Position numbers and translations under genes: made by a program
Origin: an uncultured Bacteroidales bacterium
GTDB taxonomy: Bacteria > Bacteroidota > Bacteroidia > Bacteroidales > UBA3824
NCBI GenBank assembly: GCA_905233995.1
Contig: CAJOGF010000053.1
Span: 1-40,623 of the forward strand
DNA: 40,623 bases
Direction: 5' to 3'
In this document: in pieces, positions 26,604-40,623 of the stretch
Position numbering within the stretch: the first letter of the stretch is position 1
Layout of the letters: each line of letters begins with the position of its first letter
The notes under the pieces: model-generated
The model's database searches: none
What the model was told of the DNA's origin: nothing
The model's input: only the letters and a program-made list of their open reading frames with translations

Positions 26604-28555
26604 ATGTCTAATTTCAAACAACATTCTGTATCGCGTAAAATTACGCTTCAATTTGGTATTATATTGGCAGTTACGGGTTTTGCAATTGTGATGGCTATTT
26701 TTATAGTGAGCAATTCAAAGAGTAATGCCAATTTTTTCTTTGAGAAAGCCATGCCTATAAAGGATTTGGGCAATCTTGTTTACCAAAAAACATTGTTAGG
26801 GCTTTCTGAAGTTCAAATGTTTACAACCACTCGTAACGAAGAGCATCGAAAGGCGGCTATTGATTATTTTAAAGAATTAATGGGCTGTTTTAGTCAGATG
26901 AGAGAAAAAGTATCAGGCGAGGATGCTGTGTTAGTAGATTCAATGATTGCAAAAGCAAGTCGTTACAACAATATTGTCCACAACAATGTTATTCTTGCTG
27001 ACAAAATGATTGCTGTGCACGAAGAAATGAATAAACTCAAGAATGAGTATTTTTTTCCAAATATCGAAAAACTTCAAAACGGTGTAATTGCAAGTGCTAA
27101 CTCGTCTAATGCGAGAGAATCGGCGCAACGTCAAAAAACGATTTCAGACCTTTTACATCTTTTTTTAGAATTTCCGACCAAAGACTTATTCAGCAGGCGA
27201 TTACACGAACAAGCGAACTTGTAAGAGAAATTTCTCAATTTGCTCCACTAATTGGTCAAGGGGCAACTATGCAGGAAATGGTTGATGCAATAAAAGAATA
27301 TTCTGTAAAGACAAAGGAGTATTACGAATTAGCGGCTATTGTTGCAGAAAACAACCGCAAAGCCGCAATAGAAAGTGATGCTGTTTTGGATTTAGAGAGT
27401 AAATTCAATACCAAACATTACAACGAGGTAAACGAAATAATACTTGGACTTAACAGTAAAATGTCAACAAGTCAGAAACTTATGTTTATTTTGTTGTTGG
27501 CTGCCATTGCTGTTAGTATTGCGTTGATAATAGCGATGACACGCAATACTGTTGAGCCAATCAAAAAGGCTGTTGAAGGTATCAAAAAAATTACCGATGG
27601 CGATTTAACGGCTAAAGTTGACATCAATACTGGTGATGAATTTTCTGAAATGGCAGAGCAACTCAACACAATGAACTCTAATTTGAAGAATGTTGTAAGT
27701 AATATTACTTCAAGTTCTGAACATATCAATCAATATAGTATTGAAATGTCTCAGGCTTCGGATTTGATGAGTCAAGGAGCGGGACTTCAGTCGGCTTCTG
27801 CGCAGCAAGTGTCGGCATCGGTGGAAGAGATGAATGCTTCTATTAGTCAGAATAATCAAAATGCGCGTCAGACGGAGCAGATAGCGCAAAATGCTCTTGA
27901 CAGTATTCGTGAAAGTAGTAATGCAAGTCTGCGTTCTGTGGCTGCAATGAAAGATATTGCTAATAAGATTTCTATTATTGACGAAATTGCGTTTCAGACT
28001 AATATTTTGGCTCTTAACGCTGCTGTTGAAGCCGCTCGTGCAGGCGAACATGGCAAAGGTTTTGCCGTTGTTGCCTCTGAAGTTCGAAAACTTGCAGAAC
28101 GAAGTGCAACCGCTGCCGCTGAAATTGATAAAGTTAGTAAGGAGGGGGTTAGCATTTCGGAAGATGCGGGCAATCGTCTAAAGGATATTTTGCCAGAACT
28201 TGAGAAAACGGCAATGCTTGTTCGTGAGATTGCAGATGCAAGCGATGAACAAACCACTGGTATTGAACAAATCAGTAATGCGGTTCAGCAACTAAACGAA
28301 ATAACACAACAGTACGCTTCTTCGGCTGAGGAACTTTCTTCTTCAAGTAAGAAACTTGCTCAAGAGAGTGAAACCTTAAAGCAATCTGTTGAATATTTCA
28401 ATATTGGACAATCCACTGAAAGAACTTCGTATTCAAACGGATATATTAGTAATCAGTTGCAAAACTCTGACAATCAGAATTATAATTCTGTGTCGCAGTC
28501 AACATCACTTGCTAAATATTCTGCCGCAAAAAATAAGAAAGCAATTCAAGAATAA
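26604..28555 (+). pseudogene. Methyl-accepting chemotaxis protein split by a -1 frameshift (ORFs 26604-27224 and 27269-28555)
   Basis: TM1 and sensor start in ORF1; TM2, HAMP (GDLT...DEF) and [40 protein letters not shown] in ORF2. The -1 frame is open from about 27110, across a T7 tract at 27160-27166. Confidence 0.82.
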
Positions 28556-28600: not shown

Positions 28601-29166
28601 TTAATTTTTTAGTTTCCAACTTCTGATTTTATTGGACATCTCGGCTGCTTTGTTGAGTTCTTGAAGATAAGTTTCAAGTTCTTTCATTGGTTTTGTAACT
28701 GCCACCTGACCTGTACATGCAAATTGCAAAATGCCGTATGGTTTTAGTTGGTCAAAAAGTTTCAAAACTTCTTTTCTTGAACCAGTTTTTTCAACAATTA
28801 TAAACTCTTTTTCAATATCAAGTATTCTGACGTTGAAATCTCTTATCAAGCCTTCCATTGGCGTTGAAATGTTTGCCGTTGAAATTTTGTAAAGAGCGAG
28901 TTCCTGACTTACAACATCTTGTTGTTCATAGTAAAATGCCCTTAAAACCTCCGTTAATTTTTCAATCTGGTCGGCGGCTTTTTTCATCATTTCGGGCGTT
29001 GTTTTGGTAACAATAGTATAGCGGAAAATGCCTTTTATTTCCGATTCTGATGTCGTAAGCGAGTCGATATTATAAAAACTATTGTTATACGGTTCAATAG
29101 TCCAACTTTGTCTTCTGTAAAAACCACAACCGTATATTGTTTTATATTTTCTTCTGTTGTTTTCAT
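28601..29166 (-). pseudogene. ilvN: Acetolactate synthase small subunit, frameshifted (remaining ORF 28601-28990)
   Basis: ATG 29166 gives MKTTEENIKQYTVVVFTEDKVGLLNRITIVF; NIDSLTTSESEIKGIFRYTIV then continues in another frame from about 29071. About 13 nt are missing relative to the paralogue (IFTRHKVNIESL). Confidence 0.85.
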
Positions 29167-29171
29167 TTTGT

Positions 29172-30896
29172 CTAATCGTTACTTACTAATTTCATTTCGT
29201 CAACTGTAGAGCCGGGGGCGATAAATGGCATTACTTTCATATCTTTGTCAACAATTATTTCGAGTAGATATGCGCCTTCGTAAGAGAGCATTTCTTGAAT
29301 TGAGGATTCCAAATCCTCTCTTAATTCAACTTTTTTTGCTTTTATTCCGTATGCTTTTGCAAGTAGAATAAAATCAGGATTTACAAGGTCGGTTTCAGAA
29401 TATCGTTTTCCGTTGAACATATTTTGCCATTGTCTTACCATGCCGAGAACTGAGTTGTTAAGTATGACGATTTTTACGGGAATTTTCTCTTGAATAATTG
29501 TTCCGAGTTCTTGTTCGTTCATTTGGAAACCGCCGTCGCCGGTAAACAATACAACGGGGAAATTTTTCATTTTGTTGGCCTTTGACATAAATTTCTGTGC
29601 TACTGCGGCTCCAACTGCTGCCGGCAGACCAAATCCCATTGTTCCGAGTCCTCCTGAAGTTAAGAAAGTATTCGGATGTTTAAATTTGTAATATCTTGCT
29701 GCAATCATTTGGTTTTGACCAACATCTGTTACAACAATTGCATCTCCTGAAGTTTTTTTCGATACAATGTCAACGGCTTCGCCCATTTGTATTAATGGCA
29801 ATGTAGAATGAGTATCTTTTTTGATTACTTGTTCTAATTCCATTTGATAGAATTTGTCAAATTCTTTTCGCCAACGATTGTAAGTTTTTTTCTCGATTCT
29901 TGGAGTTAAGTATGACAATGCTGATTTCAAATCTCCGTGAACAGATAAATCGGCGGACACGATTTTTCCGATTTCTGATTTGTCGATTTCGATATGTAGA
30001 ATTTTAGCTTTTGTGCCGTAGCCGGAGGTTTTGCCGGTTACTCTGTCCGAAAATCTCATACCGATAGCGATGATTAAATCGGCTTGATTTGTTAACATGT
30101 TTGAGGCGTAACTTCCGTGCATTCCGAGCATTCCTACATTCAGAGGGTGGTCGGATGGCAGTGCAGAAAGTCCCATCAACGTTGTGCCAAACGGTATTCC
30201 TGATTTTTCCACAAATTCTTGAACGGCTTTTTCGGCTCTTGCAATCAGCACGCCATGACCGATAAGAATGAGTGGTTTTTGTGCAGCATTAATCATTTCG
30301 GCAGCCTTGTCGATTGTCTCCTGCGGAATTTCTGGGTAGGGAACATAACTCCTTATGACAGGTGCTTTTTTGTATACGAAATTTGTCTGCGAGGTAAGTT
30401 CATTTTTGGTGATTTCCAAAACCACAACGCCCGGACGTCCTGAAACGGCAATGTAAAATGCTTTAGCCATTGTTTCAGCAATATCTTCGGCTTTAGTGAT
30501 TTGTGCGCTCCATTTTGCAATCGGCATCGAAAGTCCGAACACGTCGGTTTCTTGAAAAGCATCTGTTCCAAGAAATGCGCTTCCAACCTGACCTGTTATA
30601 ACAACAAGTGGCACTGAATCCATGTTAGCATTAGCAATTCCCGTGATAGCATTAGTTGCTCCCGGTCCCGAAGTTACAATGCAGACTCCGGGTTTGCCAG
30701 TAATTTGTGCGTATGCTTGAGCCTCATGAACTGCTGCTTGTTCATGACGAGATAGAATATGATGTATTTTGTCTCTTTTGCTGTAAAGACTGTCGTAAAG
30801 CGGTATTACCGCACCGCCCGGATAGCCGAAAACTGTATCTTGACCTTCTTCTATCAAAGATAGTAATACGGCATCCGCTCCTGAAATTTTTTCCAT
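29172..30896 (-). CDS. ilvB: Acetolactate synthase large subunit (copy 1)
   Basis: FGYPGG, RHEQ, TSGPGATN, DAFQE, GMLGMHG, TDVGQNQM, SGGLGTMGFGLP, GDGGFQMN; ATG 30896 preferred to TTG 30923. Confidence 0.96.
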   Translation of the reverse strand: MEKISGADAVLLSLIEEGQDTVFGYPGGAVIPLYDSLYSKRDKIHHILSRHEQAAVHEAQAYAQITGKPGVCIVTSGPGATNAITGIANANMDSVPLVVITGQVGSAFLGTDAFQETDVFGLSMPIAKWSAQITKAEDIAETMAKAFYIAVSGRPGVVVLEITKNELTSQTNFVYKKAPVIRSYVPYPEIPQETIDKAAEMINAAQKPLILIGHGVLIARAEKAVQEFVEKSGIPFGTTLMGLSALPSDHPLNVGMLGMHGSYASNMLTNQADLIIAIGMRFSDRVTGKTSGYGTKAKILHIEIDKSEIGKIVSADLSVHGDLKSALSYLTPRIEKKTYNRWRKEFDKFYQMELEQVIKKDTHSTLPLIQMGEAVDIVSKKTSGDAIVVTDVGQNQMIAARYYKFKHPNTFLTSGGLGTMGFGLPAAVGAAVAQKFMSKANKMKNFPVVLFTGDGGFQMNEQELGTIIQEKIPVKIVILNNSVLGMVRQWQNMFNGKRYSETDLVNPDFILLAKAYGIKAKKVELREDLESSIQEMLSYEGAYLLEIIVDKDMKVMPFIAPGSTVDEMKLVSND

Positions 30897-30954
30897 TTTT
30901 TTGCTACGTATATTTTGTTGCAAATTAAAAAAAAATTACAAACATCTGCAAATT

Positions 30955-31016: not shown

Positions 31017-31065
31017 TTTGTTATTTCATAAATAATGAGTATTTTTGCCTGTAAATTATTCTATT

Positions 31066-32481
31066 ATGCTTATAGGAAGAGATAAAGAAAAAGTCATATT
31101 ACAAGAGGCTCTTGACAAAGAAGAATCTCAATTTATTGCGGTTTACGGACGTCGTAGAGTTGGTAAAACATTCTTAATTAGAGAAAGTTATGGTTATCAA
31201 TTTTATTTTCAGTTTACGGGAGCCGCACATACTTCATTGAAAAATCAATTAACAAGATTTGTTTTTGCTCTTCAAGAGCAAGGCTTAAAAGATGCTCCGA
31301 GGCAAATTAATTCTTGGTTAGAAGCCTTTAGTTTGTTAAAACAACTTATAAACCAGAAAGATGGAGGAAAAAAAGTTATTTTTTTAGACGAACTTCCATG
31401 GCTTGACTCTCCAAGGTCGGGATTTTTGTCAGAATTGGAAGTTTTTTGGAATGGTTGGGCTTCTGCACGAAAAGATATAGTGCTTGTAGTTTGTGGAAGT
31501 GCTACTTCTTGGATGGTTAATAAAATCATAAAAAACAAAGGTGGATTACATAATCGTCTTACTCAACGTATTGCTTTAAAACCGTTTACATTGAAAAATT
31601 GTAAACAATTGACCATAAGTAATGGTGTAGAATTTTCGCAACGGCAATTGCTTGAAGCCTATATGATTTTTGGTGGTGTACCATATTATTGGAGTCTGCT
31701 AAAAAAGGGAGCAAGCCTTGCTCAAGAGATTGATAGATTGATATTTTCTGAGGACGGCGATTTGTATGACGAATTTAGTATGCTATATGCTTCGCTTTTT
31801 AAAAAGCCAGAGCCGTATATAAAAGTTATTTCGCTTTTGTCGAACAAAAATTATGGCATGACTCGTCAGGAATTGATTTCGGCAGGAGGGTTCGACGAAA
31901 ACGGTGCGTTTTCCGACCTCTTGTCCGACCTTGAATGGTGTGGTTTTATTCGTTCTTATCAAAACACAGGTAAACGGGTGAAAGATGTTGTTTATCAGTT
32001 GATTGATAATTATACTGTATTCTATTATTCGTTTGTAAAAAATAGGCGACGCTCAAAAAACTATTGGCAATCCATGCAAGGTAAACCCGAATACAACGCA
32101 TGGTGCGGTCTTGCTTTTGAGCGGGTTTGCCTTTGGCATACCGAGCAAATAAAGGCAAAACTTGGTATCAGCGGCATTGTTACTACCGAATATGCTTGGC
32201 GTAATGTTGCAAACAATGAAATTTCTGGTGCGCAGATTGATTTGCTAATTGAGCGTGGTGACGGTATTATTGATATTTGTGAAATAAAATTTTCCGTTGA
32301 AGAATATTCAATCACAAAAGAATATATGGAAAAATTGTTGCATAAAAAATCTGTATACAAAAGTGTTACAAAAACTCGTAAAGCAGTTCATTTGGTTATG
32401 ATAACAACTTTTGGTTTAACAAAAAATGCTTATTTTGGAGAGATTCAAAACGAGGTTGTAGCAGATGATTTGTTTCAATAA
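31066..32481 (+). CDS. AAA ATPase (archaeal-ATPase type) with C-terminal PD-(D/E)XK/DUF234-like domain
   Basis: LIGRDKE, Walker A YGRRRVGKT, Walker B IFLDELPW, VCGSA, GGVPYY, GLAFE, GAQIDLLI...ICEIK; -7 element at 31040-31047; ATG 31066. Confidence 0.9.
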   Translation: MLIGRDKEKVILQEALDKEESQFIAVYGRRRVGKTFLIRESYGYQFYFQFTGAAHTSLKNQLTRFVFALQEQGLKDAPRQINSWLEAFSLLKQLINQKDGGKKVIFLDELPWLDSPRSGFLSELEVFWNGWASARKDIVLVVCGSATSWMVNKIIKNKGGLHNRLTQRIALKPFTLKNCKQLTISNGVEFSQRQLLEAYMIFGGVPYYWSLLKKGASLAQEIDRLIFSEDGDLYDEFSMLYASLFKKPEPYIKVISLLSNKNYGMTRQELISAGGFDENGAFSDLLSDLEWCGFIRSYQNTGKRVKDVVYQLIDNYTVFYYSFVKNRRRSKNYWQSMQGKPEYNAWCGLAFERVCLWHTEQIKAKLGISGIVTTEYAWRNVANNEISGAQIDLLIERGDGIIDICEIKFSVEEYSITKEYMEKLLHKKSVYKSVTKTRKAVHLVMITTFGLTKNAYFGEIQNEVVADDLFQ

Positions 32482-32546: not shown

Positions 32547-33107
32547 CTATTTTTCTTCTTGTTTTTCCAAATCCGAAAGATAGTCTGTGAGTTTGCCCAT
32601 TGGTCTTGTTACGATTACTCGTCCTGACTGGATAAATTCTCTAACATCGTAACCTTTAAGTTGTTTTGAAAAATCCTCAATATCGTCTAACGTGCCAGTT
32701 TTTTCAATCACAAAAAATTCTGGCTCTAAAGCAATTATTCTTGCCGAATGGTTTTTTATTAAATCAACCAACGAATTTTTTGCAGTTATGCCTTTGGTTG
32801 AAATTTTAAACAAGGCTATTCCCATTGCGATAACTTGATTTTCGTCGTATAAAAACGCTTTTAAAACTTCAACTTGTTTTTCTATAAGTTTCCTTAAATG
32901 CTCTGCCTGATCTTTTGTGGTATTTATCGTTATGACAAACGAATGTATACCTTCTGTCATTGCAGTTGAAGTGTTAAGCGATTCTATATTTACTTTGTGT
33001 CGCGTAAAAATAATCGAAATTCTATTTAGAAGTCCGACATGGTTTTCTGTGTAAATCAGCAATGTGTATTTTTGACGAGTATTATCTTGATTGTTTTTGT
33101 TTTCCAT
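32547..33107 (-). CDS. ilvN: Acetolactate synthase small subunit (copy 2, intact)
   Basis: ACT domain ENHVGLLNRISIIFTRHKVNIESL, IEKQVEVLKA, EKTG, SGRV. Confidence 0.93.
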   Translation of the reverse strand: MENKNNQDNTRQKYTLLIYTENHVGLLNRISIIFTRHKVNIESLNTSTAMTEGIHSFVITINTTKDQAEHLRKLIEKQVEVLKAFLYDENQVIAMGIALFKISTKGITAKNSLVDLIKNHSARIIALEPEFFVIEKTGTLDDIEDFSKQLKGYDVREFIQSGRVIVTRPMGKLTDYLSDLEKQEEK

Positions 33108-33109
33108 TT

Positions 33110-34837
33110 TTATTCTTTTTCTTGAGCGGTTAATAACATTTGGTCAACTGCTTTTCCGGCTGGGATTACGGGGTAAATATTTTCTAATTTTTCAACTGTA
33201 ACCTCAATAAAGTAACTTCCGGGGTAATTTAGCATTTCGTCGATTGCAGAATCCAAATCTTCCAAAAGTGTAACTTTTCTTGTTTTGATTCCGTATGCTT
33301 GTACAATTTTTTCAAAATCAGGATTTTGCATTGCTTTGAAATAGTCATGCGATTGATAATACAAATCTTGAAGTTGCCGAATCATTCCCAAATAATTGTT
33401 GTTAAGAAGAATCATTTTTATTGGCAATTTGTATTGCATTATTGTTCCTAATTCTTGAATTGTCATCTGAAAACCACCATCGCCCATAAAACAAACCACA
33501 TTTCTTTTGCCCTTACCATACGAGGCACCTATTGCTGCAGGTAGTCCAAACCCCATTGTTCCGAGCCCTCCTGAAGTGATAAAAAAGTCGTTGTCCTTAA
33601 ACTCAAAATATCTTGCCGTTGCCATTTGATTTTGACCAACATCTGTTACCACAACTGTTGCATCTTTTATTTTGTTGCTAATTGCTCTAACGGCTTTTCC
33701 CATTTTTAAAATGCCATCGTCTAAGGTTTTGTTTGAGTATTTTCCTAAGTCTTTGTTGATGACTTTTTCTTGCTCTTTTTGCCTTAAACTTTCCATTTCT
33801 TCGAGCCATTCGTTGTGAAAATTTTTGCTAATTTTCATTAGAAGTTGTTTTAAAGCCGATTTTGCGTCTGCAATTATATGTACATCGGTTTTAACAACTT
33901 TGTCAATTTCCGACGGATCGATTTCTATGTGAATGATTTTGGCATTTTTAGCATATTGAGCCACATTTCCTGTTACTCTGTCAGCAAACCTCATTCCGAT
34001 TGCTAAAAGTACATCGCAACGATTTGTCATAATGTTAGCGGCATAGTTTCCGTGCAGACCAACCATTCCAGCGTAAAGCGGATTTGAAGTTTCAAAGGCC
34101 GATAGTCCAAGAAGTGTTGTCGCAACTGGAATTTGCGCTGTTTCTGACAGGTTTTTTATCAAATCTTTGCAACCCGAAATTAGTACGCCGTGTCCAACAA
34201 TCATTAAAGGCTTTTTGGCATTGTTCAAAAGTTGAGATGCTAAATCTATATCCTTTTCAATTGGTTTTAGTTTTGGGTGATAACTGCGGATTTTTTCGCA
34301 TTTCTGATATTCAAATTTTTCAATAATTTGAGTTTGAGCATCTTTTGTGATGTCAATCAGTACTGGGCCGGGTCTACCGCTACGGGCTATGTAAAAGGCT
34401 TTTGCAAGTGTTGACGGTATTTCTTCGGCTTTTGTTATTTGATAATTCCATTTTGTAACAGGCATCGAAAAGCCGACAACATCGGTCTCTTGAAACGCGT
34501 CATAGCCGAGTTGAGGTGTCAACACTTGACCTGTGATGCAAACTATCGGTGTGCTGTCGAGTTGAGCGTTTGCAATGCCGGTAAGCAGATTTGTCGCCCC
34601 CGGTCCTGAAGTTACCATACAAACGCCGACCCTCTTGTTGACGGCAGCGTAACCTTCAGCAGCATGAACTGCGCCTTGCTCATGCCTTACCAAAACGTGT
34701 TTGATTTCATTCTCGTGTTTATAAAACGAATCGTAAATTGGAAGATTACTTCCGCCGGGATAGCCGAAGACTGTGTCAACGCCTTCCGCAATAAGTGCTA
34801 ATGTAACCGCTTCAGCACCGTTAATATTTTCTACCAT
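33110..34837 (-). CDS. ilvB: Acetolactate synthase large subunit (copy 2)
   Basis: FGYPGG, RHEQGA, TSGPGATN, SGRPGPVLIDI, TDVGQNQM, GDGGFQM; -7 element at 34863-34870 (minus). Confidence 0.96.
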   Translation of the reverse strand: MVENINGAEAVTLALIAEGVDTVFGYPGGSNLPIYDSFYKHENEIKHVLVRHEQGAVHAAEGYAAVNKRVGVCMVTSGPGATNLLTGIANAQLDSTPIVCITGQVLTPQLGYDAFQETDVVGFSMPVTKWNYQITKAEEIPSTLAKAFYIARSGRPGPVLIDITKDAQTQIIEKFEYQKCEKIRSYHPKLKPIEKDIDLASQLLNNAKKPLMIVGHGVLISGCKDLIKNLSETAQIPVATTLLGLSAFETSNPLYAGMVGLHGNYAANIMTNRCDVLLAIGMRFADRVTGNVAQYAKNAKIIHIEIDPSEIDKVVKTDVHIIADAKSALKQLLMKISKNFHNEWLEEMESLRQKEQEKVINKDLGKYSNKTLDDGILKMGKAVRAISNKIKDATVVVTDVGQNQMATARYFEFKDNDFFITSGGLGTMGFGLPAAIGASYGKGKRNVVCFMGDGGFQMTIQELGTIMQYKLPIKMILLNNNYLGMIRQLQDLYYQSHDYFKAMQNPDFEKIVQAYGIKTRKVTLLEDLDSAIDEMLNYPGSYFIEVTVEKLENIYPVIPAGKAVDQMLLTAQEKE

Positions 34838-35115: not shown

Positions 35116-35147
35116 TTTGGCGAATTTTTCTTTAGTTTTTAATTTTG
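35116..35147 (+). promoter_or_regulatory. Consensus Bacteroidota promoter for the sulfur/encapsulin operon
   Basis: TTTG (35116-35119), 20 nt spacer, TAATTTTG (35140-35147), 23 nt before the cysK ATG. Confidence 0.75.
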
Positions 35148-35170
35148 CGACATAAAAAAATACCGAATAT

Positions 35171-36115
35171 ATGAGTAAAAAAAAAATAAACGAAAACGTT
35201 ACAGAACTAATTGGTTCAACACCTCTGCTGAAACTTAACAGAATAGGTTTTCAGGAAAAATTGCAGGCAAGTATTCTTGCAAAAATAGAGGCATTTAATC
35301 CGGGTCGCAGTGTTAAGGATAGAACGGCTCTTTCTCTTATTGAAGCGGCTGAAAGAAAAGGACTTATCAACAAAAATTCTGTTATTATAGAACCTACAAG
35401 TGGAAACACTGGAATTGGTCTTGCAATGGTTTGTGCTACAAAGGGTTACAAACTTATTCTAACAATGCCTGATTCTATGACAATAGAGCGTAGAAAAGTT
35501 TTGAAAGCCTTAGGTGCAGTTTTGGTTTTGACACCAGCCTACGAAGGTATGCCGGGTTCAATTAAAAAAGCCCATGAATTAGCAAAAGAATATGTCAATT
35601 CTTATATTCCTCAACAGTTTGAAAACGAGGCTAATCCTGAAATTCATCGCTTGACAACCGCAAAGGAAATAATCGAAGATACTGACGGAAAAGTTGATAT
35701 TTTTATTTCAGGCGTTGGCACGGGTGGTACAATCACGGGTACGGGCGAAGAATTGAAAAAATATAATCCAAATATCAAAGTTATAGCCGTTGAACCTTTC
35801 ACAAGTTCGGTGCTTTCTGGTCATAAGCCCGGTCCGCATAGACTTCAGGGCATTGGCGCGGGATTTATTCCGAATATTCTCAACACCAAAATTTATGATG
35901 AAATAATAAGAGTGAAAGATGAAGACGCTTTTTCTTGGTCAAGACAATTGGCTAAAAAAGAGGGAATTTTGGTAGGAATTTCTTCTGGGGCGGCTCTCTC
36001 GGCGGCAATTCAAGTGGCAAAACGTCCTGAAAACAAAGGTAAAAATATAGTTGTACTTTTGCCCGATACCGGCGAAAGGTATCTTTCAACAACACTTTTC
36101 AAGCAAGATGAATAA
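35171..36115 (+). CDS. cysK: Cysteine synthase A
   Basis: PLP lysine SVKDR, EPTSGNTGIGLA, QQFENEAN, GVGTGGT, QGIGAGF, GISSGAA, PDTGERYLST. Confidence 0.95.
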   Translation: MSKKKINENVTELIGSTPLLKLNRIGFQEKLQASILAKIEAFNPGRSVKDRTALSLIEAAERKGLINKNSVIIEPTSGNTGIGLAMVCATKGYKLILTMPDSMTIERRKVLKALGAVLVLTPAYEGMPGSIKKAHELAKEYVNSYIPQQFENEANPEIHRLTTAKEIIEDTDGKVDIFISGVGTGGTITGTGEELKKYNPNIKVIAVEPFTSSVLSGHKPGPHRLQGIGAGFIPNILNTKIYDEIIRVKDEDAFSWSRQLAKKEGILVGISSGAALSAAIQVAKRPENKGKNIVVLLPDTGERYLSTTLFKQDE

Positions 36116-36138
36116 TAATTAAAAATGTTAAAAAAAAT

Positions 36139-36351
36139 ATGGTAACAATAATCGTAAACGGTAAAGATCAAGAAGTTACACTTCCTTTAACATTGGAAGA
36201 ACTTATCAAAAATAATAATGTCGCTAATCCTGAAATGGTGAGCGTTCAAATAAATGACAAGTTTATTGAAAGAGAAAATTTTTCAACAACGCAAATTTCA
36301 GAAAACGATGTCATTGAGTTTCTTTACTTCATGGGTGGAGGCTGGTATTAA
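36139..36351 (+). CDS. thiS: ThiS/MoaD-family ubiquitin-like sulfur carrier with C-terminal extension (MGGG-WY)
   Basis: IIVNG start, VSVQIN, ENDVIEFLYFMGGG; two residues follow the diglycine. Confidence 0.88.
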   Translation: MVTIIVNGKDQEVTLPLTLEELIKNNNVANPEMVSVQINDKFIERENFSTTQISENDVIEFLYFMGGGWY

Positions 36352-36417
36352 TTGACAGTTGATAATTGACAATTCGTAATTCAAAATTCGTAATTCAAAA
36401 TTCGTAATTCAAAAATT
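36350..36417. repeat. Heptamer tandem array AATTnnn x9
   Basis: AATTGAC AGTTGAT AATTGAC (AATTCGT AATTCAA)x3 fills the thiS-moeB spacer. Confidence 0.92.
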
Positions 36418-37227
36418 ATGTTTGATTTTTCAGAAGAAGAACTCAATAGATATTCGCGCCACATACTTTTGAAAGATGTTGGCGTTGAAGGGCAAGAAAA
36501 AATTCGTAACGCCAAAGTGCTTGTTGTTGGTGCGGGTGGACTTGGTTCGCCAGTGATTTTATATTTAGCGGCTGCTGGAATTGGTACAATTGGTATTATT
36601 GACGGTGATGTGGTTGATTTAAGCAATCTTCAGCGTCAGATTATACATACAACAAAAGATGTCGGATATTCTAAGGCTTTGTCGGCACAAGAAAAAGTTA
36701 AAGCCTTAAATCCACACGTTAAAACTGTGGTTTACAGAGATTTCTTGCGTGCAGACAACGCTCTTGACATTATAAAAGAATACGATTTTATAATTGACGG
36801 AACTGATAATTTTCCTGTAAAATTCTTAATCAACGATGCTTGTGTAATGGCGGGCAAACCATTTAGTCATGGTGGAATTTTAAGATTTGACGGTCAGACG
36901 TTTACGCACGTTCCGGGGCATAGTTGTTATAGATGTATTTTCAACGCTCCGCCGCCTGCTAACCTTGTTCCGACCTGTTCTCAAGCGGGTGTGCTTGGAG
37001 CAATAGCAGGAATGTTAGGTACTATTCAAGCCGCTGAAACTTTGAAATATTTCACTGGTGCAGGCGAATTGTTGACAGACAAATTGCTTGTTTTTAATGC
37101 AAAGACAATGGATTTCAGAAAAATATCTGTTGCAAAAAGAGATAATTGTCCTATTTGCGGTCATAATCCAAGTATCACAGAACTTGTGGATTACGAGCAA
37201 GCCGCTTGCGAAATGAAAAAACATTAA
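36418..37227 (+). CDS. MoeB/ThiF/HesA-family E1-like adenylyltransferase (no rhodanese domain)
   Basis: RYSRH, GAGGLG, DLSNLQRQ, DGTDNF, Zn motifs CYRC and CPIC, crossover Cys PTCSQAG. Confidence 0.93.
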   Translation: MFDFSEEELNRYSRHILLKDVGVEGQEKIRNAKVLVVGAGGLGSPVILYLAAAGIGTIGIIDGDVVDLSNLQRQIIHTTKDVGYSKALSAQEKVKALNPHVKTVVYRDFLRADNALDIIKEYDFIIDGTDNFPVKFLINDACVMAGKPFSHGGILRFDGQTFTHVPGHSCYRCIFNAPPPANLVPTCSQAGVLGAIAGMLGTIQAAETLKYFTGAGELLTDKLLVFNAKTMDFRKISVAKRDNCPICGHNPSITELVDYEQAACEMKKH

Positions 37228-37243
37228 AAAAGCATAGAAAAAA

Positions 37244-37726
37244 ATGTCAGACGAAAAGAAAAAATTATCGCTTATTGCTTTTTCTGGCGATTTTGATAAG
37301 TTGACCGCAGTGTTTACTCTTGCTTCGGGAGCGGCAGCGGTTGGTTACGAGGTGAATATTTTTTTCACTTTTTGGGGGCTTGACGCTATCAAACAGAAAA
37401 AAGGCAGAAGTTTTGTCGGAGGAAACCTCTTGACTAAGATTTTTGGTTTTATGATGGGAGGTCTTCATGTTGCGCCGACTTCAAGGTTTAATTTCTGTGG
37501 TTTGGGACCGCGAATTTTCAGAAAGTTGATGAAAAAAAATAATGTCGCAACTTTGGAAGAACTTGTGGAGGCATCAACGGCTTTGGGCGTTAATTTATAC
37601 GCTTGCGAAATGGCTATGCACGTTTTGGGGCTCAAACAATCGGATTTTATTCACGAAGTAAAAGATACTCTTGGAGTGGCTACTTTTCTTGAAATTTCCG
37701 AAGGCGGCAGAACGATGTTTATATAA
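37244..37726 (+). CDS. DsrE/DsrF/DrsH-like (DsrE2-type) sulfur-transfer protein
   Basis: FSGDFDK, ASGAAA, IFFTFWGL, YACEMAM with conserved Cys, GVATFL. Confidence 0.9.
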   Translation: MSDEKKKLSLIAFSGDFDKLTAVFTLASGAAAVGYEVNIFFTFWGLDAIKQKKGRSFVGGNLLTKIFGFMMGGLHVAPTSRFNFCGLGPRIFRKLMKKNNVATLEELVEASTALGVNLYACEMAMHVLGLKQSDFIHEVKDTLGVATFLEISEGGRTMFI

Positions 37727-37759
37727 TTGAAAATTGACAATTGACAATTGAAAGTTGAA
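37725..37759. repeat. Heptamer tandem array AATTGAn x5
   Basis: AATTGAA AATTGAC AATTGAC AATTGAA AGTTGAA, starting within the upstream stop codon. Confidence 0.85.
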
Positions 37760-37778
37760 AAATTAAAAAATTAAATTT

Positions 37779-38003
37779 ATGGCAACACATACTTTAGATA
37801 TAACAAAAGAGCATTGCCCGATGACATTTGTCAAGACAAAACTAAAACTTGCTCAAATCTCTGATGGCGATATTTTGGAGGTGCTTTTAACAGAAGGCGA
37901 ACCTCTTAACAATGTTCCAAAATCTGCAACAGAACAAGGCTTTAAAGTTCTTGGTATAGAGCATGTTTCAGGAAATATTCATAAGGTAACAATCGAAAAA
38001 TAA
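37779..38003 (+). CDS. TusA/SirA-family sulfurtransferase
   Basis: 74 aa; LDITKEHCPMTFVKTK with the CP motif; GDILEVLL. Confidence 0.9.
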   Translation: MATHTLDITKEHCPMTFVKTKLKLAQISDGDILEVLLTEGEPLNNVPKSATEQGFKVLGIEHVSGNIHKVTIEK

Positions 38004-38404
38004 TGAAAGTTAAAATTTCTGATTCTGCTTGGCAGTCTGTTTTATCGCAAGCGCAAAAAGATGCTCCTAAAGAATCATGCGGCTATTTACTTGGAACTGA
38101 TGCTGAAACCGTTACCGAAAATTATCCAATGACAAACATTGATGATTCTACGGAGCATTTCAGTTTTGATGTTAAAGAACAGTTTGAGGCTGTAAAATAT
38201 GCCCGAAAAAATTCTCTTGTGATTGTAGGAAATTGGCATAGTCATCCTGCTACGCCGTCAAGACCTTCTAAGGAGGATATTAGATTGGCTTTCGACGAGA
38301 ATATTCTGTATTTTATTTTGTCGTTGAAAGACGAAAAACCAGTTTTCAATGCTTTTAAAATTCAAAACTCAAAAGTTATTGAAAAAATTGAGATAAAATC
38401 GTAA
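38003..38404 (+). CDS. JAMM/MPN+ (M67, Mec-like) metallopeptidase
   Basis: PKESCG catalytic Glu and WHSHPATPSRPSKED (HxH-x7-S-x2-D); TAATG overlap with the TusA gene. Confidence 0.93.
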   Translation: MKVKISDSAWQSVLSQAQKDAPKESCGYLLGTDAETVTENYPMTNIDDSTEHFSFDVKEQFEAVKYARKNSLVIVGNWHSHPATPSRPSKEDIRLAFDENILYFILSLKDEKPVFNAFKIQNSKVIEKIEIKS

Positions 38405-38430
38405 TAATAAAATTAAAATCACAAAAACAA

Positions 38431-39870
38431 ATGTCAGACAACAATATTCAGCGCAGTATAACAACTGTGACAGCAAGAAATCTTGCGGACACAACTAAGA
38501 CCCCGCCGCAGATGGGTTCCATCACTCCAAGATTATTATTGAAATTACTTCCTTGGACACAAGTGGAAAGCGGAACTTACAGAGTAAATAGAACAAAAGT
38601 TGAACTGAAAAAAGCAGAAAGAATTGTAATTCAGTATTTTGAAGGTGTTCCAAGTTTTACCGCAAAAAATCTCAAAGCAATTCCGCTTTTTTTAAATATT
38701 GATTCGGAAATTGTTTCAGACCTTGCAAAAAATTTTGTTCCTGTTGAGGTAAAACGTGGCGAAAATCTCGTTACGCAAGGTAAAGATAAGCAAAAATTTT
38801 TTATCGTTGCTAATGGTCAGGCTGAGGTTATCAGTACGGGGCTTCACGGTGAGGAATTGAGAATTGCGCTTTTGTCAACGGGAGAATATTTTGGGGAGGC
38901 TGACCTTTTGTCTGCTGCTGATTCTACTGTTTCGGTTAGAGCCGTTACGGATTCAGTTTTTCTTCAACTTGACACTCCTGTTTTGGAAAAACTTATTAGC
39001 GAAAAGCCAAATTTCCGCGAACAATTCAATAATGCTGTTAACGAGCATTTGAGACTAAAGGCTACAGTAAACGATCATGGCGAAAAACATATCGACCTTG
39101 TAAGCGGACACGAAGAGGATAATATTATCCCTGAAACTTATATTGATTATGACGAAAATCCAACTGAATATCAATTAAATACGCTTCAGACTGTTGTTCG
39201 TGTTCACACTCGTGTCAGCGACCTTTACAACAAACCATACAATCAGTTGGAACAGCAATTAAGACTTTCAATCGAAAGTCTAAAAGAGCGTCAAGAGTGG
39301 GAACTTATTAATAATAAAAAATTCGGACTTTTGGCTCAAGCCGCTCCGGGTTATAAAATCAGCACTCGTTATGGTGCTCCAACTCCTGACGATTTGGACG
39401 AACTTTTAACTCTTGTTTGGAAAGAGCCTGCGTTCTTTATTGCTAATCCGAGGGCTATTGCTGCTTTCGAGAGAGAATGTACATGGCGTGGAGTTCCGCC
39501 CGTTGCAATCGACCTTTTCGGAACCAAAGTGATAACTTGGCGAGGCGTGCCGATTGTTCCTTCCGACAAAGTGGAAATCAAAGGTCAGTATTTGACAAAC
39601 AGAGGTGTCGGCACAACAGAAATCATTCTTGTTAGAACCGGCGAAAAAGAGCAAGGCGTTGTTGGACTTCATCAAGCCGGCATTCCGGGCGAAATTGCTC
39701 CGTCGCTTTCTGCAAGGCTTATGGGGCTTGACCAGTTTGGTGTAGCAAGTTATTTGTTGACAAAATATTTCTCTCTTGCAAGCCTTACTGACGATGCAAT
39801 TGCAGTGCTTGAAAACGTGGAAGTTGGATATTATCATGATTATCAGCACAGAAACCAAATTGAAAAATAA
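38431..39870 (+). CDS. Family 2B encapsulin nanocompartment shell protein (cNMP-binding domain inserted)
   Basis: Family 2 motifs ARNLADTTKTPPQM, LLKLLPW, GTYRVNR, LRVHT-like VRVHTRVSDLYN, ERQEWELIN, PTPDDLDELL, WRGVPIVPSDK, GVVGLH; 479 aa with an internal cNMP-like domain (GEYFGE). Confidence 0.92.
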   Translation: MSDNNIQRSITTVTARNLADTTKTPPQMGSITPRLLLKLLPWTQVESGTYRVNRTKVELKKAERIVIQYFEGVPSFTAKNLKAIPLFLNIDSEIVSDLAKNFVPVEVKRGENLVTQGKDKQKFFIVANGQAEVISTGLHGEELRIALLSTGEYFGEADLLSAADSTVSVRAVTDSVFLQLDTPVLEKLISEKPNFREQFNNAVNEHLRLKATVNDHGEKHIDLVSGHEEDNIIPETYIDYDENPTEYQLNTLQTVVRVHTRVSDLYNKPYNQLEQQLRLSIESLKERQEWELINNKKFGLLAQAAPGYKISTRYGAPTPDDLDELLTLVWKEPAFFIANPRAIAAFERECTWRGVPPVAIDLFGTKVITWRGVPIVPSDKVEIKGQYLTNRGVGTTEIILVRTGEKEQGVVGLHQAGIPGEIAPSLSARLMGLDQFGVASYLLTKYFSLASLTDDAIAVLENVEVGYYHDYQHRNQIEK

Positions 39871-40556
39871 TGTACTGCAGCGAATTTTTAAGATTTTCGC
39901 CTGACGAACTTTCTGTTTCTGACAGGTCGTTGTTTGAAGGAGTAATAAAAAAATATTTCTCTGAAGACTTAAAACCTGTACAAGTTGATAATAGAAAATT
40001 TTCCGATTTCGGCGAAGAAGATTTTCAGGGCAATAGAAAATGTTTGCTCAAAGATGACGGCTTTGGAATCGGTATTCCTGAGACCGAAATCGTCAAAAAA
40101 CTTAGTTATGATGAGGTTGACACGATAAATTCGGAGCAAGTCCGTTTGCAATTTCCTATTCTTCATCAAAAGGTAAACGGTCATGACCTAATTTGGTTTG
40201 ATAACGGCGCAACAACGCAAAAACCGCTCAGCGTGATAGAAGGGTTAAGTGAGTTATACAAAACTGATTATTCCAACATTCATCGTGGAGCGCATACTTT
40301 GGCTGCTCGTTCTACCGATAAATATGAACAAGCAAGAAACAAGGTTGCGAAATTTATCAATGCTCCAAATAGCGAAAATATAGTTTTTGTGCGCGGAACA
40401 ACCGAAGGTATAAATCTTATTGCTCATACTTTTGCGCAGAAATATCTTCTTGAAGGTGATAATGTTATAGTTTCAACACTTGACCATCACGCTAATATTG
40501 TGCCTTGGCAAAGTATGTGCAACCTCAATTCCGAAAGTCTAAAATTTTTTCGATAA
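39870..40556 (+). pseudogene. SufS-type cysteine desulfurase (encapsulin cargo type), 3'-truncated
   Basis: About 87 aa N-terminal extension, then FPIL, WFDNGATTQKP, SNIHRGAH, FVRGTTEGIN, HHANIVPWQ. Homology stops near 40520, before the PLP Lys and catalytic Cys motifs. Confidence 0.85.
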
Positions 40557-40623
40557 AAAAATATTTTTTACCTTGTAATTTTTTTATGACTGTAAAAATG
40601 TAAAGTTTAGTTTGCTCCTAAGG

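Follow-up and report, generated by a model that had tools for sequence, protein, structure and literature searches.

Two kinds of described system bear on the locus reported here. In the first, a family 2A encapsulin shell is paired with a cysteine desulfurase. The report on this type describes an operon that is induced by sulfur starvation and a shell in which elemental sulfur is stored, and it suggests a rhodanese as a candidate for recovery of that sulfur (PMC10836720). Desulfurase cargo has also been reported for about 9% of family 2B systems in another study (10.1101/2024.04.23.590730), and in the literature searched we found none of these that had been characterised. The second, defined by Iyer, Burroughs and Aravind (2006) as operon class 4e, encodes ThiS, JAB, a rhodanese-less E1 and SirA with sulfite reductase and O-acetylhomoserine sulfhydrylase, and Wolinella is among its members (PMC1779556). 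We describe here a 40,623-nucleotide stretch of DNA (the window) in which features of the two types meet. The window is the entire contig C53 of assembly G000, from a gut or rumen Bacteroidales bacterium (3.4 Mb, 331 contigs, 90.75% complete, 6.78% contaminated). Its final 5.5 kb holds eight co-directional open reading frames (ORFs), which encode CysK, a ThiS-like sulfur carrier, an E1, a DsrE2-like protein, TusA, a JAMM peptidase, a family 2B shell protein and the first part of a SufS-type cysteine desulfurase. The products were named by Pfam and NCBIfam profile searches, and both names and places agree with those in an initial annotation made from the sequence alone.

We propose, with moderate confidence, that the operon is one sulfur-handling system made of two known modules, in which an encapsulated desulfurase feeds the relay in the place of a sulfite reductase. 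We predict that the JAMM peptidase would trim the tail that follows the Gly-Gly of the ThiS-like carrier, that the rhodanese-less E1 would adenylate the trimmed C-terminus, and that persulfide sulfur would travel via TusA and DsrE2 to give the ThiS thiocarboxylate (ThiS-COSH). CysK would join ThiS-COSH to O-acetylserine, a reaction that a MetY-type enzyme would carry out with O-acetylhomoserine in many relatives, and JAMM would free cysteine from the carrier. The 2B shell would enclose the SufS-type desulfurase through the N-terminal extension of the latter, and this encapsulated enzyme, plus any sulfane sulfur deposited in the shell, would be the sulfur source of the relay. Sulfur from cysteine could in this way be banked and then regained as cysteine without free sulfide. 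Encapsulation, sulfur storage, each of the transfer steps and the direction of flow are predicted by analogy with the protein families involved. Gene identities, catalytic motifs, a conserved linkage and a swap of modules among relatives are direct observations.

The swap is apparent among 401 evenly sampled Bacteroidales genomes (G000 and 400 drawn). The shell is present in five of them, from four of 236 genera; JAMM is present in 12 and a close DsrE2 (at least 59% identity) in 11. Eight of the 401 genomes encode a JAMM/E1/ThiS cluster without a shell. Sulfite reductase (NIR_SIR) adjoins six of these eight clusters, where siroheme-synthesis genes and genes for a MetY-type enzyme, CysK or both are also found. 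The shell-less sister clusters fit operon class 4e, which includes Wolinella (PMC1779556). A C-terminal TusA fusion is present on the sulfite reductases of L110, L112, L113, L114 and L115 (Table 1), L111 being cut by a contig end. The fused proteins are of the assimilatory type, 770-810 aa in length and always encoded beside ThiS/E1/JAMM; the fusion suggests that the reductase passes its product to the relay as bound sulfur, not as free sulfide. A search for NIR_SIR (PF01077) gave no match in the shell-plus-relay genomes G000, G259, G344 and G388. As shell and desulfurase occupy the place that sulfite reductase-TusA has in the sister clusters, they are the likely sulfur source of the relay. 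The suggestion in the initial annotation that the compartment may replace the usual sulfide source thus gains comparative support. The ThiF tree places all eight shell-less sequences to one side of a branch whose support value (SH-aLRT) is 98. As the branch to the outgroup has a great length (10 changes per column), no root or order of events is claimed. Genes for Rrf2-family regulators occur just 5' of cysK in a shell-type locus (L050) and in a sulfite-reductase-type locus (L113), and it is possible that they are cysteine or iron-sulfur status regulators of both cluster types.

Linkage of the relay to the shell extends well past this contig. Relatives of the shell number in the thousands, and the closest 120 listed are 75-93% identical to it; about 15 of the 120 carry a source name, in each case as Bacteroidales, and several are titled 'family 2B encapsulin nanocompartment shell protein'. 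One shell listed by NCBI comes from an isolate, Viscerimonas tarda, and the operon is also carried by some assemblies of Prevotella and Parabacteroides. In a collection of species-representative genomes, 488 loci have a shell relative. The best 80 (shell identity 79-93%, all Bacteroidales, mostly from rumen and gut assemblies) were inspected by tblastn with the window proteins. All seven partners lie beside the shell in 61 of these 80 loci, and E1 is found at most 9 kb from it in 72; of the eight without E1, seven are cut by a contig end less than 3 kb away. We identified at least four gene arrangements: the order of the window (38 loci), cysK-dsrE2-tusA-enc-CD-thiS-thiF-JAMM (13 loci; enc, shell gene; CD, cysteine desulfurase gene), thiS-thiF-JAMM-cysK-dsrE2-tusA-enc-CD (seven loci) and one with an inverted thiS-thiF-JAMM block (two loci). 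Throughout the 80 loci, tusA is at most one gene from the shell gene. A co-directional MetY-like gene less than 400 bp from the cluster was identified in 37 and a CysE-like gene in 12. That the gene set is kept through these rearrangements argues for a function, despite the kinship of the loci. The linkage of thiS, E1, JAMM, tusA and dsrE to shell and desulfurase, first noticed on a single contig, is thus shared by many Bacteroidales genomes, among which gene order varies.

One locus from the genus of the window (L107, in genome G362) has thiF, dsrE2 and tusA, at 78-86% identity, between genes for a TonB-dependent receptor and a helicase. The window queries found no thiS, JAMM, cysK, shell or desulfurase there, and the dsrE2 match was not recovered as a long ORF. 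This locus may be a decaying remnant of the operon.

The residues expected for the chemistry of the relay are present. Invariant are the zinc and active-site cysteines of E1 (C170, C173, C244, C247 and C187; 83 of 83 sequences), C13 of TusA (88 of 88), C121 of DsrE2 (86 of 86) and the E...HxH...S..D motif of JAMM (E24, H79, H81, S89 and D92; 79 of 79). The DsrE2-like protein scores 75 bits on the NCBIfam DsrE2 equivalog, which is under the cut-off of 210. Most of 71 ThiS homologues end in FMGGG plus a variable tail of 1-5 residues, and a few end differently. Given this tail, a processing peptidase would be needed to expose the Gly-Gly, and JAMM is always encoded nearby. The pyridoxal phosphate (PLP)-dependent sulfhydrylase partner is present in the window as CysK, and MetY is lacking there. 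Elsewhere in the genome we identified distant MetY paralogues only, CysE on contig C2 and a CysK paralogue (62% identity) on contig C18. By analogy, CysK may use ThiS-COSH as its sulfur donor; MetY of Wolinella succinogenes is reported to take a protein thiocarboxylate as sulfur donor. The donor types of the known thiocarboxylate pathways were not found here: the E1 is without the rhodanese domain of the M. tuberculosis pathway, and NIR_SIR, the donor in the cluster of Wolinella class 4e, gave no match in the operon or in the 90.75% complete genome.

The shell protein consists of an N-arm, a cNMP-fold insertion (approximately residues 75-215) and an HK97-type SrpI-like domain. The SrpI-like profile (PF19307) matches residues 209-466 with 373.5 bits and cNMP_binding (PF00027) matches residues 105-191 with 57.8 bits; it is this insertion that separates 2B from 2A. 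Solved 2A and 2B shells match the window shell at E-values of 1e-97 to 1e-112. The best match is a 2B shell (9bje_A, 2.5e-112, residues 6-466), followed by SrpI (6x8m, residues 224-474). Together with the encap_f2b model NF041163, on which the protein scores above cut-off (Table 1), the insertion and the 9bje_A match bear out the family 2B assignment. We predict from the sequence that the window shell would assemble around its cargo.

The initial annotation called the store possibly ligand-gated, and in the cyclic-nucleotide sense this does not hold up. S165 of the shell aligns with the phosphate-binding Arg of protein kinase A regulatory subunits, and among 85 related shells the position is Ser in 82 and Ala in three. 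In the 2B study, the shell examined does not bind cyclic AMP and nearly all 2B shells are without this Arg (10.1101/2024.04.23.590730). Gating by cyclic nucleotides is unlikely because the phosphate-binding Arg is replaced by Ser; another ligand for the insertion domain is possible. A more tentative extension of our proposal is that the relay set is a remobilisation path for encapsulin-stored sulfur, which would yield cysteine on demand (and also homocysteine where there is a MetY), and that the external cNMP-fold domains sense a metabolite of sulfur status or dock the relay proteins. Complex prediction for the insertion domain (residues 57-222) with TusA gave a score of 0.00 against a mark of 0.32, which is neither support nor counter-evidence.

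The desulfurase has an N-terminal extension of about 107 aa, after which the window encodes only the first part of the Aminotran_5 domain. The remainder is encoded at the end of contig C75 (Table 1), the translation of which contains GHK and HHC, presumably desulfurase motifs. The gene is split at 40521/40522 and its reading frame is not intact in this assembly, with the last codons and the stop of the ORF as called (39870-40556, plus strand) contributed by a repeat. Across the junction, intact relatives read HANIVPWQQVCKERKAELRAIP; the window reads HANIVPWQSMC and C75 goes on with KEKKAELRAIP. Set against intact relatives, the two pieces meet exactly, and no desulfurase sequence is missing. 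All ORFs of the eight-gene operon first described are thus there, but the last gene is incomplete.

The end of the repeat that begins at 40522 occurs on nine contigs, including C53, and the other end occurs on 13, namely C75 (its last 98 bases) and 12 further contigs. Its terminal inverted repeats, CCTCAATTCCGAAA and CCTTAATTCCGAAA, are imperfect, and TGCA flanks the insertion on both sides, a pattern consistent with an insertion sequence that duplicates 4 bp of its target. Near-identical ends are found in two genomes of the same genus (G362 and G808), at contig edges only; no full copy, interior or transposase was identified in 31 genomes. Because the insertion splits the gene, the assembled strain probably has no working source step. 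A 302-nt contig from run X16 fits 40348-40522 and continues with 127 nt unlike the window; it could be an uninterrupted desulfurase allele.

Relatives encode an intact desulfurase of 460-560 aa. The N-terminal extensions of 80 sequences, which precede the SufS domain, conserve KYFpED and GFGIGIPE (the latter in at least 80%), which are candidate loading signals by analogy with other family 2 cargos. The style of GFGIGIPE, which lies in the extension (encoded at 39870-40190 in the window) and in those of relatives, recalls the Gly/Pro-rich motifs of 2B terpene cyclase cargos. The 2A cargo model NF041166 covers only the SufS part of the protein (236 bits, cut-off 800). A second, ordinary SufS is encoded on contig C2.

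Several observations weigh against a relay that is fed by the encapsulated desulfurase. Cysteine would be both source and product, and the cycle needs storage in time. Nor can it be assumed that TusA (8 kDa) has access to a persulfide that lies within a closed shell. The genomes in which no sulfite reductase was matched are drafts (G000 90.75% and G388 65% complete), and L065 has a relay-shell cluster plus a sulfite reductase. The 80 loci are close kin and hence not independent. The cluster lacks cysK in six or seven of them, and at L045 (cysK-dsrE2-tusA-enc-CD) there is no thiS, thiF or JAMM in 4 kb upstream and 10 kb downstream. The base of the CysK tree (50 rows, with half of the shell-plus-relay CysKs excluded) is unresolved, and the tree does not distinguish a CysK that arrived with the relay from one that arrived with the shell. 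Shells without the relay also belong here: G149 encodes sulfite reductase-cysK-cysE-shell-desulfurase, and in a family from another class of the same phylum (f167) the shell occurs in 45 of 87 sampled genomes.

The f167 shells have 65-67% identity, and in some genomes each of two contigs carries a shell gene. At 13 inspected loci (L117-L129) the order is cysK-cysE-shell-desulfurase (724 aa)-Cys/Met PLP enzyme-thiS-thiG-thiH-thiF, and approximately 345 aa precede the SufS domain of the desulfurase. The thiS and thiF genes of f167 were considered as a second case of linkage and rejected, as they belong to a thiamine cluster (thiS-thiG-thiH-thiF) without JAMM, TusA or DsrE2. In the same class as f167, three genomes encode a 2A-type shell plus desulfurase, with a CysK-like gene nearby in two and a CysE-like gene in one. 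Given the cysK-cysE contexts without the relay, cysteine synthesis that feeds the desulfurase fits equally well. As shell and desulfurase occur elsewhere without it, the relay would be an add-on in one Bacteroidales group and not a fixed part of 2B systems; the older and wider association is that of shell and desulfurase with cysteine-synthesis genes.

These contexts bear most directly on a reverse flow, in which TusA and DsrE2 would collect sulfane sulfur or thiosulfate, the relay would make cysteine, and the encapsulated desulfurase would bank its sulfur, with the compartment as a sink. The shell and desulfurase genes lie directly behind cysK-cysE in f167 and in G149 (in the latter with sulfite reductase), the core cysK-X-enc-CD is kept with either cysE or dsrE2-tusA as X, and serine O-acetyltransferase is frequent in family 2A operons. 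We nevertheless regard this direction as somewhat doubtful. The shell-plus-relay genomes have no sulfite reductase match and no other conserved donor gene in the cluster, so the relay would have no source. Furthermore, sulfite reductase-TusA is clearly upstream of the relay in the sister clusters, and shell and desulfurase take the place of precisely those genes.

Co-regulation alone is an unlikely explanation. It would have two independent modules of a sulfur-starvation or cysteine regulon share an operon, with no direct transfer of sulfur between them. Each module is indeed found alone (the relay with sulfite reductase, the shell with cysK-cysE), and in some loci (L050 and L113, one of each cluster type) an Rrf2-type regulator gene precedes the cluster. 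However, at least four rearrangements have left the gene set together, with tusA at most one gene from the shell, and we identified no alternative sulfur source in the shell-plus-relay genomes. It is highly improbable that ThiS, E1 and JAMM act in protein conjugation, tagging shell, cargo or CysK like archaeal SAMP/UbaA/desampylase: JAMM has 'desampylase' as its best NCBIfam match (65 bits, cut-off 130) and E1 reaches 314 bits with the model for SAMP-activating E1 (cut-off 450), but both scores are below cut-off, there is no E2- or E3-like gene, the constant partners are TusA, DsrE2, CysK and MetY, and the sister clusters are of a sulfur-assimilation class with a characterised member in Wolinella.

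Layout of the operon is given in Table 1. Its intergenic spacers are 16-66 bp in length, and stop and start codons overlap as TAATG at 38001-38005 and 39868-39872; short spacers and two overlaps had both been described initially. The sequence ahead of cysK is an exact match to TTTG-N20-TAATTTTG, the Bacteroides-type promoter consensus. This motif occurs five times in the window, with 3.4 expected by chance, and at least five times in 28 of 100 shuffles. As its frequency is at chance level, position alone (in a 333-bp divergent spacer) supports the site at 35116-35147. The consensus promoter claimed earlier is therefore present as an exact match, but the motif is not enriched. A sigma-70 promoter scan gave matches at chance level. 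Terminator-like sites were not found in the operon spacers, in keeping with the first description; the scan gave five sites, all inside genes and at chance level. An Rfam scan of the window at gathering thresholds gave no match, and thus no known riboswitch ahead of the operon.

Table 1. Coordinates of features in the window and, where a locus or contig is named, in related or linked sequences.
Feature	Coordinates	Strand	Basis or remark
HAMP + methyl-accepting chemotaxis signalling domain gene	27269-28555		
Acetolactate synthase large + small subunit pair, first	28601-30923	-	small subunit short, 129 aa
ATPase_2-domain gene	31045-32481		separates the acetolactate synthase pairs
Acetolactate synthase large + small subunit pair, second	32547-34837	-	
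Promoter-like motif, Bacteroides-type	35116-35147	+	TTTG-N20-TAATTTTG, exact match, 23 bp 5' of cysK ATG
CysK-type O-acetylserine sulfhydrylase, 314 aa	35171-36115	+	PALP; TIGR01139, 461 bits (cut-off 351)
ThiS-like sulfur carrier, 70 aa, C-terminus ...FMGGGWY	36139-36351	+	ThiS profile
AT-rich spacer of short tandem repeats	36352-36417		sequence inspection
ThiF/MoeB-type E1 adenylyltransferase, 269 aa, without rhodanese domain	36418-37227	+	Pfam/NCBIfam
DsrE2-like sulfurtransferase, 160 aa	37244-37726	+	DrsE_2, 1.5e-39
Second AT-rich repeat spacer	37727-37778		sequence inspection
TusA sulfurtransferase, 74 aa	37779-38003	+	TusA profile; stop overlaps JAMM start (TAATG)
JAMM/MPN+ metallopeptidase, 133 aa	38003-38404	+	Prok-JAB
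Family 2B encapsulin shell protein, 479 aa	38431-39870	+	cNMP_binding + SrpI-like; NF041163, 557 bits (cut-off 400)
SufS-type cysteine desulfurase, putative cargo, gene 5' part	39870-40521	+	Aminotran_5 profile positions 1-113 of 371
Multi-copy repeat end, presumably insertion sequence, interrupting desulfurase gene	40522-40623		contig-end comparison
Desulfurase gene, remainder	G000:C75:23179-23994	-	Aminotran_5 positions 109-371
Sulfite reductase-TusA fusion	L110:12625-15060		
Sulfite reductase-TusA fusion	L112:5119-7437		
Sulfite reductase-TusA fusion	L113:10946-13324		
Sulfite reductase-TusA fusion	L114:6635-8956		
Sulfite reductase-TusA fusion	L115:11057-13441		
Rrf2-family regulator gene	L050:5535-5972		just 5' of cysK, shell-type locus
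Rrf2-family regulator gene	L113:6074-6514		just 5' of cysK, sulfite-reductase-type locus

In the two AT-rich spacers, short units (AATTCGTAATTCAAA-like and AATTGACAATTGA-like) are repeated in tandem. Word depth at both is 100- to 500-fold over that of the flanks, which indicates that repeats of this kind are common in the communities sampled. In run X2, a DNA contig from another, related strain skips exactly 35 bp (36357-36391) of the thiS-E1 spacer, and exactly 35 bp of the dsrE2-tusA spacer (37738-37772) are likewise lacking in that strain. Information on strains and expression comes from assembled contigs of public runs, and such contigs prove neither transcription nor a single transcript. 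Several DNA runs from bovine gut show the operon with a likeness of 90-100%. Contigs from rumen RNA libraries (X16 and X17), also at 90-100% likeness, cover parts of the cysK, thiF, dsrE2, tusA, JAMM, shell and desulfurase genes, and one of 172 nt from X17 (38306-38477) spans the junction of the JAMM and shell genes. They are a hint that close relatives of the operon occur in RNA libraries.

5' of the operon and divergently transcribed is an acetolactate synthase gene pair, one of two in the window. Farther along the contig, one gene encodes both HAMP and methyl-accepting chemotaxis signalling domains. Such a gene is unusual in Bacteroidales, which are generally not known to have flagellar chemotaxis; the assembly is 6.78% contaminated, but the gene shares its contig with the operon.

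Each module of the operon is already known, and their union, relay plus 2B desulfurase shell, was not found in the literature searched. The 2021 catalogue lists 199 family 2B desulfurase operons in nine phyla and names only serine O-acetyltransferase and rhodanese as accessories; 'TusA' and 'JAMM' are absent from its main text. The 2024 paper on sulfur storage excluded 2B shells from its survey (PMC10836720). Full-text searches returned no paper that links an encapsulin to TusA, ThiF or a sulfur carrier protein, although supplementary tables (PMC8346489, PMC8049743) may list such neighbours. The initial annotation knew of no characterised system with the whole combination; 2B desulfurase operons as such, however, are not new, having been catalogued in 2021.

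Gut and rumen assemblies of Bacteroidales with this operon type number in the hundreds (488 related loci, 80 of them inspected). The operon supplies a complete candidate set of sulfur-withdrawal proteins with known chemistry, which makes the question testable with purified parts. The exchange of sulfite reductase-TusA for shell and desulfurase is a natural swap of sulfur source before the same ubiquitin-like carrier pathway, and it bears on how anaerobes without sulfate reduction manage sulfur. If the relay does remobilise stored sulfur, deposit and withdrawal would for the first time form a complete circuit around a bacterial compartment that stores a nutrient.

Compared with known systems, the window resembles the family 2A desulfurase encapsulins (SrpI/CyD of Synechococcus elongatus, and Acinetobacter baumannii) in its SrpI-like shell domain, in a SufS-type desulfurase with N-terminal extension encoded directly behind the shell gene, and in a sulfur/cysteine context. 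Unlike 2A shells, the window shell has the cNMP-fold insertion. The accessories here are TusA, DsrE2, ThiS, E1, JAMM and CysK, whereas those of 2A are rhodanese and serine O-acetyltransferase, and the cargo extension of about 107 aa compares with roughly 220 aa in 2A. To the Streptomyces 2B shells (Sg Enc/EshA with 2-methylisoborneol synthase; the two-component shells 9bje/9bix) the likeness is full-length, and both lack the phosphate-binding Arg, with Ser at that position here and Trp there. The cargo gene here encodes a desulfurase and there a terpene cyclase, and the window has one shell gene.

On the side of the relay, HcyS/HcyF/HcyD/MetY of Wolinella succinogenes, with sulfite reductase, shares the ThiS-like carrier, the rhodanese-less E1, the JAB protein, SirA/TusA and a PLP sulfhydrylase; the C-terminal extension of HcyS is reportedly removed by HcyD. 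Lacking from the window cluster are the genes for sulfite reductase, siroheme and sulfate activation, with shell and desulfurase there instead; DsrE2 is an added constant member, and CysK is present but MetY is not. In Mycobacterium tuberculosis, CysO/MoeZ/Mec/CysM likewise lead from a protein thiocarboxylate to cysteine by means of a PLP synthase, with a JAMM hydrolase. MoeZ has a rhodanese domain, whereas TusA and DsrE2 are separate proteins here; CysM uses O-phosphoserine, whereas the window enzyme scores as CysK; and M. tuberculosis has no compartment. The order of transfer that we predict resembles the IscS-TusA-TusBCD relay of Escherichia coli, in which sulfur goes from a desulfurase to TusA and on to DsrE-family proteins. 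It also resembles the DsrE3/TusA relays of sulfur oxidisers, where a source persulfide passes to the TusA cysteine and then to a DsrE-fold protein (PMC4175335, 10.1101/2023.12.18.572138). Unlike in those relays, the end acceptor here would be a ThiS-like thiocarboxylate, and the desulfurase would stand behind a protein shell.

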